Shown here in pieces: positions 16,819-31,769 of a DNA stretch of 64,000 nucleotides. The first letter of the stretch is position 1, and the number at the start of each line of letters is the position of its first letter. The notes beneath the pieces are model-generated. The model was not told the origin of the DNA. It was given only the letters and a program-made list of their open reading frames with translations, and did not search any database. Position numbers and translations under genes: made by a program. Origin of the DNA: Octopus vulgaris (taxonomy: Eukaryota); NCBI GenBank assembly GCA_951406725.2, contig OX597815.1, positions 103,912,001 through 103,976,000 of the forward strand, read 5' to 3'.

Positions 16819-16890
<72 letters not shown>

Positions 16891-16894
<4 letters not shown>

Positions 16895-17793
16895 AAAAAC
16901 AAGTCAAAAATAGAAAATGCTAAGATGATTTTATAGTGAATCTTTCAGTACCGGTTTCGGTCATTTTGAGACCTTTTCAACTGTAACGATTAAATAATTA
17001 AATTTTGAAAAATTTAGAAAAATTAGAAGAAAGGTTTTTTTAAAGGAATACTTCCATAGTAGTGTTCAGATATATGTGGCATTCTGCCTTTCTCTGACTC
17101 CCTTGTTTGCACTTGTGTATTCGAGGTCGTTGTGAGTTCTTGAGGGGGTGGGAGTGGGAAAATCTGGGCTGGTCAGTGGCGACCGGCAGTCGCTGCGTAG
17201 GCGTTATACTTTAAGACATTAGTGGGGGTAGAAGGTGGAGAAGTAGAAGAAGAAGAAGAAGAAGAAGAAGATGACGGTGCCGATGATGATGACGATGAAG
17301 AAGAAGAAGGAGAAGGAGAAGATGACGATGATGATGGTGGTGATGACGATGACGACGATGATGATGATAACGATGATGATGAAGAAGGAGAAGAAGAGGG
17401 AGAAGAAGAAAAAAAACAGAGAAGGGAGAATATGAATGGGTGAAGATATAGCTATTTTGGGGCGATTAGTAATGGATTCTATGGAATGTAATATTTGTGT
17501 GTGTATATATATTTCTTTTATTCTTAAGTTGAGCTATATTAATTGTTTGTCGTAGACCCGTTAAGAAGTGGCCTGTATTTTATAATAAAGAGATTTTCTT
17601 TACTTATTCGTTGTCTCGAGGTTGTATCGTCCCTAAATTGGTAGAGGGGGAAAATTCTGAAGTTTGGTGTTTTTTTGTTGGCGCAAGTATCTATGTGTTG
17701 GCTAAAAGCTATTTTTCTGTTTTGGGGAATTTTTATCTGGGATCTGTGCAGGGCCATTCGTTTACGCAAACCATTTTTTGTTTGGCCTATGTA
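16891..17793 (-). repeat. downstream (3') pseudo-LTR: end of GIY-YIG coding region plus 3' UTR
   Basis: 903 bp; differs from 21130-22027 by one substitution (gctAtttt/gctGtttt), a 1-nt A-run change and 6- and 12-nt indels in the GAA/GAT tract, as far as I can read by eye. Confidence 0.95.
16944..16986 (-). ncRNA. minimal type I hammerhead ribozyme (U3-A8 variant)
   Basis: Minus strand reads UUACAG-UUGAAAA-GGUC(UCAAAAU)GACC-GAAA-CCGG-UA-CUGAAA: stem I CAG/CUG, core UUGAAAA, stem II GGUC/GACC, GAAA, palindromic ACCGGU stem III, GUA cleavage triplet. Confidence 0.8.
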
Positions 17794-19863
17794 CTGCTCT
17801 TGACACCCGGAGCAGGTTAGTGAGTATATTAGGTTCTCCGAAGCACATGTGAAGTTGCTTTTCACTGTAAACCGTTGTCCCTGTTTGAAGGAGAACTCAG
17901 AACCCTCGATTAGATAGTCGCATATCCCGCAATTGGGTCTTCCACATTTTTTTACTGTCGGCTTCTGTGTTGAAGAGTGAATTCGGGCTTGTGTTAGAAG
18001 ACTTTTCATGGATCTAGGCTGTCTTTTGCTTTTTATGATCGTGTGTGTTTGGAGGATTGTGTTCATTCTGTGGTCTTTTTTTAGGAGGGATATGTTGTGG
18101 AGGATGGTGCCGAAGGCTTCGTTATTGAGAGGGTTGTGTGTGGAGATGTATGGTAAGGCTTTTGGTTGTAAGTTTTTCTTTGATTTGGGATGTCTCAGTT
18201 CCTTGATGTTAAGTTGAAGGGCACGTTGAATGCACTTGTCAATAAGTGAAGGTGGATAGTTCCTGGTGATAAGGGTATCTTTTAGTTCTTGTAGTCGTGT
18301 GTCTCTGGTGTTTGCGTTAGAGACTATAGTGCATATCCTTTTTGCTAGATTGAAGGGGATATTCATCCTAGTGTGTCTGGGGTGGCATGAATTGAATGGA
18401 AGATATTGCTTAGAGTCTGTAGGTTTATAGTATATGTCTGTTTCTATTATATTATTAGCTTTCTTAATGAGGATATCGAGGAAGGGAAGTTGTTGCTGGC
18501 TATATTCCATCGTGAATTGGATGTTTACGTCCAGCCCGTTTAAAATTTCCTGGAATTCTATGAGTTTTTCTATATTTTTATGCCAAAGAATGAAACAGTC
18601 ATCTAGGTATCTCTTCCAGTTGTTTTCTATGTAGATGGAGAAAGGGCTGCCATATCTTTCTAGAACCTTACGATATAGACTGATCTCTAGGTATCCTATG
18701 ACTAGGTTGGCAAAGGAGGGGGCCATTCGTGTACCCATCGCAGTCCCCGATTTTTGTCGGCAGAAGTTGTCATTGAAGGCGAAGAAGTTATTTTCCAGGA
18801 TGAATTTAACCCCTTCTATCACGAATTCTTTTTTGATGCGGTGTGGTAGTTCGTTGGCGTGATTCTCTAGCCAGAATTGGATTGCCTCTAGTCCTAGGTT
18901 GTGGGGGATATTGGAGTAGAGGTTGACTACATCGAAGGATACCAGTATGGTGTTTTGGTTTATAGTATTCGGTAGGTGATTGAGCATATCTAAGTCGTCC
19001 CTTATATAGCTTTTGACATGTTTGAGGAGTGGTTTTAACAGGGTGTCTAAAAAGTTACTGAGGCGGTGGGTTTCGCATGCGGGACCTGCTATTATGGGTC
19101 TCAATTTGAGGTCATTAGGATTAGGGACTTTAATTATTTTGTCTGTGGCTATCTTGCATGCGTTGCTTATTTTTTCACTTTTGTGGATCTTAGGTATACC
19201 GTAGAATTGGCTAGTTTTACTTGTGAAATTGGTCATATAATCATATTCTTTGTCGGTGAGCCCTGCTTTGTATGGGTTAAATATGGATTTTAGTTCCCTC
19301 ATTATTTTTTGTTGACTGTAGTTTTGTGCCTTTTCATAGTATGTTGTGTCTTCCAGCATAGAAAGAACCAAGGTTATGTAAAAAGTCGTATCCATTAAGA
19401 CAACAGCACTCCCTTTATCGGCCTCTTTGATTGTTATTGTTTTATCTTGTTTTAATTTGTTCAACTCAGCCCATTCTTTTTTGCTGAAGTTTGGTTTGTG
19501 TTTTTGTTTGTGCATATGTTGATATGGGTAATTAGATATGTGGTCACAGAAATCATCAAGTGTTTTGTTCTTACCTTTCGAGGGGGTGTAGTTACTCCTA
19601 TTTCTGGCTAACGATTCGTCCTCGTTGTATTTATCGTATAGCTCCTCAGTAAGTCTTAATTTTCTGCAGAATTCTGCGATGTCTTCTTTCATTTCGTTGT
19701 AGTTGGGGTGTTGTGGGGTGGGTGTAAATTTGAGTCCTTTGGAAAGTATGTTTATTTGGTTTGCTGTTAGTTCCTTGTGAGTTAGATTGATAATTTTTAT
19801 TACTTTTGGTTCCTCCTGCTTGTTTGGTGCTATCTTGTGTCCCTGTGTTTGCGTATTGGGTCT
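17539..19863 (-). CDS. PLE ORF2: reverse transcriptase + Cys linker + GIY-YIG endonuclease (probably a -1 frameshift fusion to ORF1; first in-frame ATG at 19692)
   Basis: Motifs IINLTHKELT..INILSKGLKFTPTP (upstream of the first ATG), EADKG, FYGIPKIHK, LRPII, SFDVVNLYSNIP, GTAMGTRMAPSFANL, RYLDDCF, LPFLDI, YYKPTD..SCHP, CGRPNCGIC, NLIYSLTCSGCQEQYIGQT, RMALH; no stop codons. Confidence 0.95.
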   Translation of the reverse strand, partial: RPNTQTQGHKIAPNKQEEPKVIKIINLTHKELTANQINILSKGLKFTPTPQHPNYNEMKEDIAEFCRKLRLTEELYDKYNEDESLARNRSNYTPSKGKNKTLDDFCDHISNYPYQHMHKQKHKPNFSKKEWAELNKLKQDKTITIKEADKGSAVVLMDTTFYITLVLSMLEDTTYYEKAQNYSQQKIMRELKSIFNPYKAGLTDKEYDYMTNFTSKTSQFYGIPKIHKSEKISNACKIATDKIIKVPNPNDLKLRPIIAGPACETHRLSNFLDTLLKPLLKHVKSYIRDDLDMLNHLPNTINQNTILVSFDVVNLYSNIPHNLGLEAIQFWLENHANELPHRIKKEFVIEGVKFILENNFFAFNDNFCRQKSGTAMGTRMAPSFANLVIGYLEISLYRKVLERYGSPFSIYIENNWKRYLDDCFILWHKNIEKLIEFQEILNGLDVNIQFTMEYSQQQLPFLDILIKKANNIIETDIYYKPTDSKQYLPFNSCHPRHTRMNIPFNLAKRICTIVSNANTRDTRLQELKDTLITRNYPPSLIDKCIQRALQLNIKELRHPKSKKNLQPKALPYISTHNPLNNEAFGTILHNISLLKKDHRMNTILQTHTIIKSKRQPRSMKSLLTQARIHSSTQKPTVKKCGRPNCGICDYLIEGSEFSFKQGQRFTVKSNFTCASENLIYSLTCSGCQEQYIGQTKNGLRKRMALHRSQIKIPQNRKIAFSQHIDTCANKKTPNFRIFPLYQFRDDTTSRQRISKENLFIIKYRPLLNGSTTNN

Positions 19864-21065
19864 AAAAAATGAATGCGGTGGTTGGGACGGTAGCTGTTAT
19901 ATAGTTGTTCTTTGTTGATGTGGGGTCTCCTGTTGTGATTTATGGTGTGTGTTCTTGGAGGAGTATTGAGGAGAGCATCCCGATATCCCATATTCGGGTG
20001 TGGTGTTCTAGGAGGCCTTCGTTGGTAATCATTGTAAGTGGTGTGGGTTTGTTGTGCATGGTTGTTTAACCGGTTGATGGGACGGAGATTTCGTTGGTAA
20101 CTCTTTTGGGTGGGGATAAGGTTGCAGTGTCTATGCTGTGGGTGTTGATTTATCCATTCTCTGCTTGAAGTGGGGGTATTCCTGATATTGTAACGCTGGT
20201 TGCTTACAGAGTTAGGGTTAGGTCCTGTATTCTTTTTTTGAAAGTAGTGAAGGTTCCTATTTTTAGACAGGTGTGTATCGGTGTTTGGGTGCTGTTTTGG
20301 TTTTCTTATTTTCTGGAAAGGGTTGTTGGAGGCGTGCTCTGTTTGAAAGACGGCTTCATAGTCTGAGAACCAAATGGCGCTTTTCTCCCAGCGTTGGAGA
20401 GATTTTAGTTCTTCTTCTTCACAGTCCTCTTTCCATAGTTTGGAGAACTTCTCTTGATCTGGGCCTTGGGTCATTTTGCGAATTTCTTCGTTGATATCTT
20501 CATCGGTGGATTTTATTTTGTCCTCATTCGTTTGGGCCCTCAATTTCAGAAGTTCTATTTCCATTTTCATTTTTTCCAGTGCCATTCTCTCCCTGAGGTG
20601 TCTTTGTGTTTCAGGTTCCTCTGTAATAGCTTTGAACTGGAATTTGCGTGGGAGGATTAACGGGGTCCGGTTGAGCCATTTTTCGTATATATCCGCTTTG
20701 TTGTTGTTTTGGATCATCTTCCAAAAGGCGAACTTTCTATCACTGAGTGATTTGTTCCATTGTGGTATTATGTGGTGTTTCATTTGGTATGTTGTTGGGG
20801 TATTGATCCCATATATTGACGCGTTTGGAGGTCCTTGGTTAGCGTTGTTAGAGAAAAATGTTCTAATTGTTTCGCATAAGTTTCCAAGGTTTTCGACAAT
20901 TTCGGAGGTTGTATTTTTCGTATCTGTTTCCTCATTGTTCTCTCGATTAGGTTGATGTGTCGCGTCGAATTTGTTCAAAAATGTTGACAAATTTGTGTTG
21001 ATTTTCTTGAGTTCTTTCAGTATTTCTTCATTTATGGAGGTGACTGTGTCTGTTTTTGTCGGCAT
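19830..21065 (-). CDS. PLE ORF1: 411-aa protein with predicted coiled-coil segments and a basic N/H/R/P-rich disordered C-terminus; function unknown
   Basis: Stop-free ORF from ATG 21065 (MPTKTDT; the track start at 21116 is a GTG); heptad-like INEEILKELKKINTNLSTFL and LEKMKMEIELLKLRAQTNEDKIKSTDEDINEEIRK; lies between the two pseudo-LTRs on the RT strand. Confidence 0.85.
   Translation of the reverse strand: MPTKTDTVTSINEEILKELKKINTNLSTFLNKFDATHQPNRENNEETDTKNTTSEIVENLGNLCETIRTFFSNNANQGPPNASIYGINTPTTYQMKHHIIPQWNKSLSDRKFAFWKMIQNNNKADIYEKWLNRTPLILPRKFQFKAITEEPETQRHLRERMALEKMKMEIELLKLRAQTNEDKIKSTDEDINEEIRKMTQGPDQEKFSKLWKEDCEEEELKSLQRWEKSAIWFSDYEAVFQTEHASNNPFQKIRKPKQHPNTDTHLSKNRNLHYFQKKNTGPNPNSVSNQRYNIRNTPTSSREWINQHPQHRHCNLIPTQKSYQRNLRPINRLNNHAQQTHTTYNDYQRRPPRTPHPNMGYRDALLNTPPRTHTINHNRRPHINKEQLYNSYRPNHRIHFLDPIRKHRDTR
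19863..19869 (-). promoter_or_regulatory. putative -1 ribosomal frameshift slippery site U_UUU_UUA
   Basis: caT TTT TTA gac lies in the ORF1 frame (X XXY YYZ register), 10 sense codons before the ORF1 stop; the -1 frame continues AGA CCC AAT... without a stop into the RT. Confidence 0.75.
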
Positions 21066-21129
21066 TTTCTGTATCTCGTGTGGGTTAATGATATGTATAA
21101 GGGTGGAAAGGAACACACGAGTTGATATA

Positions 21130-22027
21130 TATGAAAAAACAAGTCAAAAATAGAAAATGCTAAGATGATTTTATAGTGAATCTTTCAGTACCGGTTTCGG
21201 TCATTTTGAGACCTTTTCAACTGTAACGATTAAATAATTAAATTTTGAAAAATTTAGAAAAATTAGAAGAAAGGTTTTTTTAAAGGAATACTTCCATAGT
21301 AGTGTTCAGATATATGTGGCATTCTGCCTTTCTCTGACTCCCTTGTTTGCACTTGTGTATTCGAGGTCGTTGTGAGTTCTTGAGGGGGTGGGAGTGGGAA
21401 AATCTGGGCTGGTCAGTGGCGACCGGCAGTCGCTGCGTAGGCGTTATACTTTAAGACATTAGTGGGGGTAGAAGGTGGAGAAGTAGAAGAAGAAGAAGAA
21501 GAAGAAGAAGAAGAAGATGACGGTGCCGATGATGATGACGATGAAGAAGAAGAAGGAGAAGGAGAAGATGACGATGATGATGGTGGTGATGACGATGACG
21601 ACGATGATGATGATAACGATGATGATGAAGAAGGAGAAGAAGAAAAAAAACAGAGAAGGGAGAATATGAATGGGTGAAGATATAGCTGTTTTGGGGCGAT
21701 TAGTAATGGATTCTATGGAATGTAATATTTGTGTGTGTATATATATTTCTTTTATTCTTAAGTTGAGCTATATTAATTGTTTGTCGTAGACCCGTTAAGA
21801 AGTGGCCTGTATTTTATAATAAAGAGATTTTCTTTACTTATTCGTTGTCTCGAGGTTGTATCGTCCCTAAATTGGTAGAGGGGGAAAATTCTGAAGTTTG
21901 GTGTTTTTTTGTTGGCGCAAGTATCTATGTGTTGGCTAAAAGCTATTTTTCTGTTTTGGGGAATTTTTATCTGGGATCTGTGCAGGGCCATTCGTTTACG
22001 CAAACCATTTTTTGTTTGGCCTATGTA
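21130..22027 (-). repeat. upstream (5') pseudo-LTR, i.e. a 5'-truncated tandem copy
   Basis: 898-bp copy of 16891-17793, including the last ~84 codons of the GIY-YIG domain (track ORF 21773-22003). Confidence 0.95.
21184..21226 (-). ncRNA. minimal hammerhead ribozyme, second copy
   Basis: Identical to 16944-16986, offset by 4240 nt. Confidence 0.8.
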
Positions 22028-22989: not shown

Positions 22990-23838
22990 ATGTGTGTATC
23001 CGAACTATTGCCATAGTAACAAAGCTAAAGCACGCAGAGTGAATCCGCTTGGCACAGCTTGATCTTCATCTGTAATGTGCATGTGCAGTAAATTTTAATG
23101 TTCTAACTCACTTCCGCTGTTTACAATAGTGCTTGGAAGGAAGGTGTGTAGCGTGTGATCATTGCATTGACCATAATAGAGAAAGTTGTCATGGCGATAC
23201 CTGCTCAGAGGCCTACGCAAAGGTGTAGAAAGTGTATGGAGAGAGGTGTATGAGCCGCTACCAAGTGTACGAGTGGTTCAGACGTTTCTAAGATGGCCGA
23301 AAAAATGTTGATAGTGACGAACTTTCTGGGAGACCTGCAACCAGCAGAACTGAGAAAAACACCGCAGATGTTGCGAGCATCTGCGAGGGGAAATCGTCGA
23401 ATCAACATCCGTGAGTTATCAGTAGATGTGCAGATTAGTTACGGTTCAGTTCAGTCCATTATCACTGAAGATTTGGGTATGAGACGCGTGTCTGCCAAGT
23501 TTGAGCCAAAACTGCTTTCAGCTGACCAAAAAGACATTCAACTTTCAGTTACACAAATCTCCTTGATTGTGTCGTCGAGAACGATGAAATCGTTTTGAAA
23601 ACTTTTCGTACCCTCTGAGCAAGAATCACCAAGCTATTGGCAAAATTGAATGCAGATTTAACGCTACACACATTACTTCCAAGCACTACTGCAAACAGCG
23701 GGAGTGAGCTAGAACGTTAAAACTTAGTGCGCATGTACCAAGGGAATTGACGGTCAATCTGTACCAAGCAGTTTCAGACTGCATGCTTTAGCTCCGTTAC
23801 TATGTCAACAGTCCGGATACTTATTGATTAGACTACGT
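22990..23838 (+). mobile_element. internally deleted mariner transposon
   Basis: Broken peptide ..KVYGERCMSRYQVYEWFRRF*DGRKNVDSDELSGRP..NRRINIRELS..ISYGSVQSIITEDLGMRRVSAKFEPKLL (bipartite HTH plus a WVP-equivalent linker); right TIR CCGGATACTTATTGATTAGACTACG followed by TA. Confidence 0.85.
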
Positions 23839-30669: not shown

Positions 30670-31350
30670 ATATATGGGTACAGGACGTCAAAAAACGTTC
30701 AATGCAATGAGAAACGAAAACATAAAAGCAAAATCATCGAAAACAAACTTTTTTCGAACAACGAAAAAAAAAACAAACAGAGAAATGAGACATGCAATTC
30801 CCCTTCATCAGTTGCCCCTGTTTCATCTACTCCGCGTCACGAAGATAAGGACAATACGCGATTTCGTTGAAACAATCCTTCCCGGAAAGCAAATTAAATA
30901 AAATTTGGCATTTTTTGCGGAAAGTGGTAACAAGAACAGGACAGTGAGAACAAGACAGTAAAAACAAACGGTGAGGGCTGTTGAGCCAAGACGATAGAAA
31001 AATTATTATGAACGCTAGGAGGATGCTACTTCTTAAGTGTCTACTGGGACAGAAACTTCTAAGGTCATGTTTGTCAAGATATTCATTGTCATGTGTCAGT
31101 CTGACAGAGTAGGAGGCCCAGTTCCTCCCTGTTGACACTGCGGAACTCCACTTCGCTCTCGCTGACAATCTCCACGCACTTCTCCACCGCAAAATCCACG
31201 TCAATGGATGGGTGTAGGGATATCACATCCATGCTGCCCACTATGCATCCTGTCAGGTCACATGTGTTGTTACTGTCTTTGATCCTACTGAGGAGATCAT
31301 CCGTGCTGTCATAAACATCTGGTGACATCTGGGCAATGAGGCGTATGATC
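30670..31350 (-). mobile_element. deleted remnant of a second, unrelated PLE family (RT fragment joined to a probable 3' UTR), within (TA)n
   Basis: 31090-31350 encodes STDDLLSRI...[17 protein letters not shown]...[10 protein letters not shown], a PLE RT motif 3/A region distinct from the intact element; TA-rich arrays lie on both sides. Confidence 0.7.
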
Positions 31351-31354
31351 ATAT

Positions 31355-31441
<87 letters not shown>

Positions 31442-31769
31442 CACACACACACATATATATATATACATATATACAAATATATATATATATATACATATAT
31501 GTATATATATCAACATTTTTATAATAAACATTTTGTTTATTATAAAAGTGATGGTTTAGAGTGGTTCGACGATTTAGCGTCTATTTTCAGTGTACAGGCA
31601 TGATAACCTCAGTACCCTTAATTATGATTGTATTTTATATTATTATAAATCTCTTTATACATATAGAGAGAGATTTATAATAATATAAAATACAATATAT
31701 ACATATATGTGTGTGTATACATATATATACATATATATATATATGCATATGTATATGTATGTATATATG

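Follow-up and report, generated by a model that had tools for sequence, protein, structure and literature searches.

A two-ORF Penelope-like element of Octopus vulgaris with an unannotated helical ORF1 and a predicted −1 frameshift site

Penelope-like elements (PLEs) are the sister group of telomerase, and we know of no structural protein for those that bear an endonuclease. In LINE-1 retrotransposons, the reverse transcriptase (RT) gene is preceded, beyond a spacer, by the gene of ORF1p, a protein with an N-terminal coiled coil, a basic disordered region, an RRM and a C-terminal domain. Canonical endonuclease-bearing PLEs are described as having a single open reading frame (ORF) (PMC8557442). 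The legend of Fig. 1 of the same paper states that PLEs can have a coiled-coil ORF1 set apart by a frameshift that comes with a pseudoknot, and some Neptune-like PLEs are mentioned as having esterases (PMC5408684). Here, we describe a PLE found in a 64,000-nt stretch of Octopus vulgaris contig OX597815.1 (positions 103,912,001 to 103,976,000; hereafter, the window). It departs from the canonical single-ORF organisation of Neptune and Penelope: two overlapping ORFs are found in each of five families. At least five such families, from A (that of the window) to E, occur in the 2.8-Gb genome, with ORF2 identities of 56–72%.

The junction between ORF1 and ORF2

Both ORFs lie on the minus strand. 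ORF1 runs from an ATG at 21065 to a TAG at 19832–19830, as the first-pass annotation had proposed for a frame of 411 codons. Relative to it, ORF2, which encodes the RT and the endonuclease, is shifted to the −1 frame; it is open from 19896 to 17539, with an overlap of 67 nt between the two ORFs. A heptamer, T TTT TTA, lies inside this overlap at 19869–19863, in phase with ORF1 and ten codons ahead of its stop. The first methionine of ORF2 is codon 60, beyond a conserved GLKF motif at codon 45; the first one past the slip site is also behind this motif in families B and E. From these sequence features, gag-pol-like −1 frameshifting at the junction is likely. Most ribosomes would stop after ORF1, so that its helical protein with a basic tail would be abundant; we predict that it coats the element RNA. 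In a minority, a slip by −1 at U_UUU_UUA would extend ORF1 into a fusion with the RT and the endonuclease, ~1,175 amino acids long. The frameshift would set a high ratio of ORF1 to enzyme, as in gag-pol, while the common N-terminal helices would recruit the fusion enzyme into ORF1 oligomers or assemblies. Binding of the element RNA would fall to the basic tail. We consider it likely that the element is a two-ORF, Neptune-type PLE making these two products, with the fusion in the minority.

The heptamer is strongly conserved. It is intact in all 30 close copies, which include that of the window and were retrieved out of 41 matches; of 59 additional loci of this genome that have the start of ORF2, 54 also keep it intact. 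The −1 overlap and the in-phase TTT TTA are kept in all five families despite saturated synonymous sites, and T6R occurs only once in each family's ORF1. In a set of 25 junctions selected for a T6 run, 20 have A and five have G as the seventh base, and 21 have G directly after it. At the protein level, Phe-Leu occurs in the last 40–5 residues of 82 out of 115 homologues (those of at least 250 amino acids among 153), compared with 11 and 9 in two preceding control intervals. We scanned metagenomes with the RT start of ORF2. This resulted in 41 loci, 34 of which contain that start; in 18 of these, an ORF1 core also lies at most 1.5 kb upstream. Among these 18, T TTT TT(A/G) is in the ORF2 frame in 17, the ORF1 core is in a −1 relation to ORF2 in 14, and the stretch from the upstream stop to the first RT motif is free of ATG codons in every case. 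Neither ORF1 nor the slip site is present in the five most distant loci (L153 and L158–L161; 27–32%). No relatives of the RT start were found in viral and prokaryote collections.

The lack of ATG codons in the distant loci argues against the separate production of ORF2 by termination-reinitiation, or by internal initiation where an AUG or near-cognate codon overlaps the stop of ORF1, with ORF1 as a free protein similar to L1 ORF1p. A suitable position exists, because the ORF1 stop of family A overlaps an ATA in the ORF2 frame, and the same position is ATA in B, ATG in C and D, and CTG in E. However, separate initiation leaves the invariant in-phase T TTT TTR unexplained, and in four of the 25 T6-run junctions the heptamer is precisely where the ORF2 frame opens. 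We regard it as improbable. Another explanation is that a single long ORF was broken by a homopolymer sequencing error or by an inherited deletion, as one could suspect from the T6 run and from the one copy with a fused frame. Yet the phase is identical in 30 out of 30 close copies, in five families and in 14 distant loci of unrelated assemblies, and contigs from two other runs (which are guessed to be RNA) span the junction with no gap. Assembly error at the junction is effectively refuted, and we give a broken ORF practically no credit.

Finally, a spliceosomal intron might join ORF1 to ORF2 in frame. PLEs can have introns (legend in PMC8557442), and Mytilus gene models link ORF1 to the RT, skipping part of the junction. 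These joins are predictions that lose part of the conserved RT start. No joint was seen at the junction in four runs, guessed to be RNA, and splicing would not keep an in-phase slippery heptamer. An intron is thus very unlikely, and both splicing and reinitiation are disfavoured relative to frameshifting. The public Mytilus models P0174 and P0175 splice ORF1 to the RT start, and P0174 continues to a host exon labelled as fibrinogen; both are likely annotation artefacts of the frameshift.

ORF1: selection, structure and relatives

The helical core of ORF1 (residues ~90–245) is under purifying selection across the five families. Between them, residues 95–255 are 48–67% identical, with 0.19–0.43 nonsynonymous substitutions per site (dN) and saturated synonymous sites, which means that the frame is not open by chance. 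The dN of ORF2 in the same comparisons is 0.17–0.36, and the ORF1 tail is only 14–37% identical. Within family A (51 distinct copies), alleles common to at least three copies have a ratio of nonsynonymous to synonymous polymorphism (pN/pS) of 0.32 and zero stops, whereas private alleles have a ratio of 0.52 and seven stops.

ORF1 is directly upstream of a PLE RT in 59 of the 60 loci of families A–E fetched from this genome, and also in bivalve gene models. A full HMMER search with ORF1 found 577 homologous clusters at 50% identity (E up to 0.001). The best 150 of these are all of 609 amino acids or fewer, which counts for a separate ORF1, and for 20 clusters that we looked up the only names obtained were hypothetical proteins, including some of Mytilus and Pinctada. 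A word search for fused ORF1-ORF2 forms of 939–2680 amino acids found none, a weak result because the same search returned only six relatives of normal length. We found nothing in favour of ORF1 being a captured fragment of a host gene that is passively carried: selection on it is as strong as on the RT, its homologues lie upstream of PLE RTs wherever the context is visible, and any given Pfam family matched at most one of the 120 members compared. This explanation is scarcely credible.

We modelled residues 1–272 with AlphaFold2 from 120 sequences (predicted local distance difference test 87, predicted template modelling score 0.66). The model has helices at 7–37, 49–75, 90–132, 152–198 and 202–243, and no beta-sheet. 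The tail (256–411) is rich in N, R, P, H, T and Q, with 27 K+R, 7 D+E, 15 H and an isoelectric point of 11.3. The first-pass annotation had read the protein as an N-terminal heptad helix, a helical core punctuated by tryptophans and a basic tail, with no recognisable CCHC, RRM or esterase domain, and this layout stands. The Trp-rich motifs are present. A CCHC knuckle is absent from a protein with only three scattered cysteines (Cys64, Cys215 and Cys314), and no RRM was matched in Pfam, the modelled part being all-helical and the tail of low complexity. Pfam gave no ORF1 match below E 0.1. A sequence-profile search of PDB returned only designed or generic coiled coils, and searches of BFVD and PDB with the fold gave no match that reached E 0.001. 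ESM Atlas yielded no usable hit, which is uninformative. The best fold match (VIA, Z 8.8, root-mean-square deviation 6.4 over 124 residues) is a syntaxin-Habc-like scaffold in the range of generic helical bundles, and with regard to a capsid fold the same searches gave only such bundles. These nulls do not establish a new fold. From its position, its charge and the analogy with other retroelements, we lean slightly towards ORF1 being an RNA-binding, oligomeric protein.

The annotation had further regarded ORF1 as an uncharacterised protein carried by the retroelement, analogous to Gag or L1 ORF1p but apparently unrelated, and possibly a new family. The first part is borne out by a selected, unannotated family in the position of gag or ORF1, with no match to a host gene. 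The analogy holds for the position but overlooked the likely −1 fusion to the RT and endonuclease. The novelty has to be qualified: no Pfam family covers ORF1, but its core aligns plausibly, if not significantly, with the N-terminal domain of single-ORF Neptune-like elements, and the Fig. 1 legend cited above already mentions a frameshift-separated coiled-coil ORF1 in PLEs (PMC8557442).

This alignment raises a different origin for ORF1, as the diverged N-terminal domain of single-ORF Neptune polyproteins, split off by an acquired frameshift and therefore not a new family. Two elements of the same genome, L162 and L166, are Neptune-like and have an N-terminal domain with an IPKGF/TPRGF loop, followed by a low-complexity linker and the RT. 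In hhalign, the IPKGF loop and the next helix fall on the invariant-Pro loop and the EIELLK helix of ORF1. However, the score (13.5, probability 0.3%) is matched by 7 of 60 block shuffles, the template depth is only 2.2, the HMM of the ORF1 core finds nothing in L162 and L166, and one further comparison was also negative. We hold this origin to be a serious possibility, somewhat short of even. It is compatible with gag-pol-like expression in mechanism and departs from it in origin. L162 (1540–5184) and L166 (minus strand, a frame of 1,008 codons) represent two very abundant, young and C-rich single-ORF families, with frames of 1,008–1,214 codons, a Pro-rich linker and an unannotated N-terminal domain.

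Contrary evidence and possible stimulators of the predicted frameshift

Several observations weigh against a frameshift-expressed, RNA-binding ORF1. Families C and D have an in-frame ATG at ORF2 codon 13, where A, B and E read ATA, ATA and CTG. Two copies, L067 and L090, lack the heptamer even if both frames are open, and L103 has a fused frame. Among the 18 distant loci with ORF1, four (L125, L129, L134 and L156) seem to be broken, their frames not being in a clean −1 relation, and in L139 a stop precedes the slip site. The pN/pS of private alleles is not 1, which makes the within-family contrast modest, and RNA binding is suggested by charge and position alone. No conserved structure was found downstream of the heptamer: mean folding z-scores in the 25 junctions are −0.04 to −0.43 relative to shuffles. 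No H-type pseudoknot was detected with a simple search, which could miss weak or protein-stabilised folds, and a search for long-range pairing in 14 elements gave no signal.

Junction folding in the window's family is around −2 to −4 kcal/mol. Clear hairpins just past the heptamer are found only in L151 and L133 (z −4.7 and −2.6), where they end at a stop ten codons downstream; possibly, they represent an ancestral stimulator lost in other families. The ORF1 stop is exactly ten codons past the heptamer in 9 of the 25 junctions and in 26 of the 115 homologous proteins, for an expectation of ~3.4% given the local stop frequency. In a quick tree of 92 rows, this spacing is kept in 24 of the 41 rows of one branch (approximate likelihood ratio test, SH-aLRT, 95) and varies outside it. 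Because they concentrate in this branch, the ten-codon cases are not independent. A general periodicity of 10, 20 and 30 codons was also considered and is weakened by the fact that seven of the nine rows with a 20-codon spacing are in one subclade and that spacings of 1–31 codons occur.

Yeast disomes stalled at stop codons are 30 and 33 nt apart (PMC7685019), and slippage in HIV can take place while the A site is occupied by the codon that follows U UUU UUA (PMC4373837). We speculate that, when termination takes place at a stop one ribosome length (10 codons) downstream, the ribosome behind is kept waiting on U_UUU_UUA, and that this queuing, which would fit the geometry, stimulates the slip. 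A hidden or lost hairpin of similar length is an alternative stimulator, and in coronavirus frameshifting the position of the stop acts by another route, the refolding of a pseudoknot (PMC8168617). A broader scenario, which we find unlikely, would be an undescribed large branch of endonuclease-bearing PLEs with a gag-pol strategy, its own helical protein forming particles or ribonucleoproteins, and −1 frameshifting driven by queuing free of RNA structure, in which the translation load of ORF1 sets enzyme output. Dozens of U_UUU_UUA/G cassettes occur naturally with no evident RNA stimulator, and they provide a set for testing whether stop position and ribosome queuing drive −1 frameshifting.

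The element, its surroundings and known systems

Table 1. Features of the element in the window (LTR, long terminal repeat).
Feature	Position	Strand	Remarks
ORF1, 411 aa	19830..21065	−	Heptad helix 7–37, helix 49–75, conserved three-helix core 90–243, basic low-complexity tail 256–411
Slippery heptamer U_UUU_UUA	19863..19869	−	Predicted −1 frameshift site; in ORF1 frame (Phe400-Leu401), then GAC
ORF1 stop TAG	19830..19832	−	Exactly 10 sense codons past the heptamer
ORF2 counted from the slip site, 776 codons	17539..19869	−	PLE RT (YLDD), CX4CX2C linker finger, GIY-YIG endonuclease
Upstream pseudo-LTR, partial tandem copy of the element 3' end	21125..22027	−	97.7% direct repeat of 16886–17793
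Downstream pseudo-LTR	16886..17793	−	~900-nt direct repeat; adjoins a (TA)n tract
Hammerhead-like motif, weak, in both pseudo-LTRs	21170..21234 and 16930..16994	−	Rfam HH9

The RT-endonuclease ORF and the pseudo-LTRs of the element (Table 1) are those of endonuclease-bearing PLEs. ORF2 matches the Pfam profiles RVT_1 (E 2.9e-8) and GIY-YIG (E 0.0012, below the curated cut-off), whose motifs are also present. The 97.7% repeats and the tandem units at L061 and L126 fit the pseudo-LTRs of these elements. The hammerhead-like motif (HH9, 22.9 bits, E 0.031) scores under the gathering score of 52 and has a degenerate catalytic core in both pseudo-LTRs, and may be inactive or a variant. A CX2-5CxxC linker finger with a long spacer was seen by motif inspection in all 13 complete ORF2s; compared by eye, it resembles the Neptune rows of Fig. 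S2 in the supplement of PMC8557442. On this motif likeness, we class the element, which is young, as a Neptune-type PLE.

We also made a few observations around these elements. Upstream of the ORF1 start, the pseudo-LTR contains three short frames that begin with ATG and span 19, 5 and 14 codons (21204–21322, minus strand). Head-to-tail tandem copies of the two-ORF element occur ~4.4 kb apart in this genome (L035–L037, L039–L041, L058–L059) and 3.7 kb apart at L126. A frame resembling the integrase of LTR elements is directly upstream of a family D copy (L085:1–1026). Elsewhere in the window, an RT-like fragment inside a microsatellite (31089–31580, minus strand) had no match in Pfam nor, by tblastn, to the PLE ORF2 set, and the region ~23250–23650 (plus strand) looks by eye like a decayed transposase fragment, which we take to be of the mariner type.

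In the sections available of PMC6431247, PMC3846280, PMC4209133, PMC5718144, PMC6515669 and bioRxiv 2026.07.22.740005, as in the other literature consulted, we found no frameshifted ORF1 in endonuclease-bearing PLEs; an earlier annotation, for example in Repbase, is possible. What is likely new is a widespread two-ORF, probably frameshift-coupled lineage of Neptune type with an unannotated helical ORF1, given that an ORF1 with a frameshift is already known for some PLEs. Such an organisation would account for the failure of annotation to capture ORF1 and for introns invented at the junction. The lineage is active in this genome and is seen in bivalves, and it provides a defined candidate for an RNA-packaging protein.

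The PLEs described with a coiled-coil ORF1, a frameshift and a pseudoknot are presumably the endonuclease-less Athena and Terminon elements. Like them, this element has a coiled-coil ORF1 upstream of a PLE RT and separated from it by a frameshift, a predicted one in our case. It differs by the pseudoknot, given in the legend of PMC8557442 and not found here. It also differs from Athena and Coprina, which are telomeric and lack an endonuclease, since it has one and its copies are dispersed on many contigs. With the Neptune clade (PMC8557442) it shares the linker finger of Fig. S2, the pseudo-LTRs, the adjoining (TA)n and perhaps the hammerhead-like motif, but that clade is described as single-ORF (PMC8557442, PMC6515669), whereas this element has two ORFs with a slippery site in their overlap. 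ORF2 and the RT-endonuclease of the single-ORF Neptune-like families of the same genome share only 27–28% identity. Upstream ORFs have been described in two other cases: Chlamys-2/5_cBra, an endonuclease-bearing PLE whose ORF1 has a zinc knuckle (PMC8557442), and the killifish Neptune repeat.CL27, whose ORF1 is of 420 nt and does not overlap ORF2 (PMC12602865). The available parts of these two papers report no frameshift signal for either.

Outside PLEs, the ORF1 resembles LINE-1 ORF1p in its position upstream of the RT gene, its N-terminal coiled coil and its basic disordered region. It differs in that the model has no RRM beta-sheet and in that no spacer lies between the frames, which overlap at a slip site. 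Compared with HIV-1 gag-pol, the element lacks a conserved stem-loop, a CCHC knuckle and a protease, and its core is all-helical and elongated. It nevertheless has the identical U UUU UUA (PMC4373837), here mostly followed by a codon starting with G, and the same order, with the structural gene first and the RT in the −1 frame.

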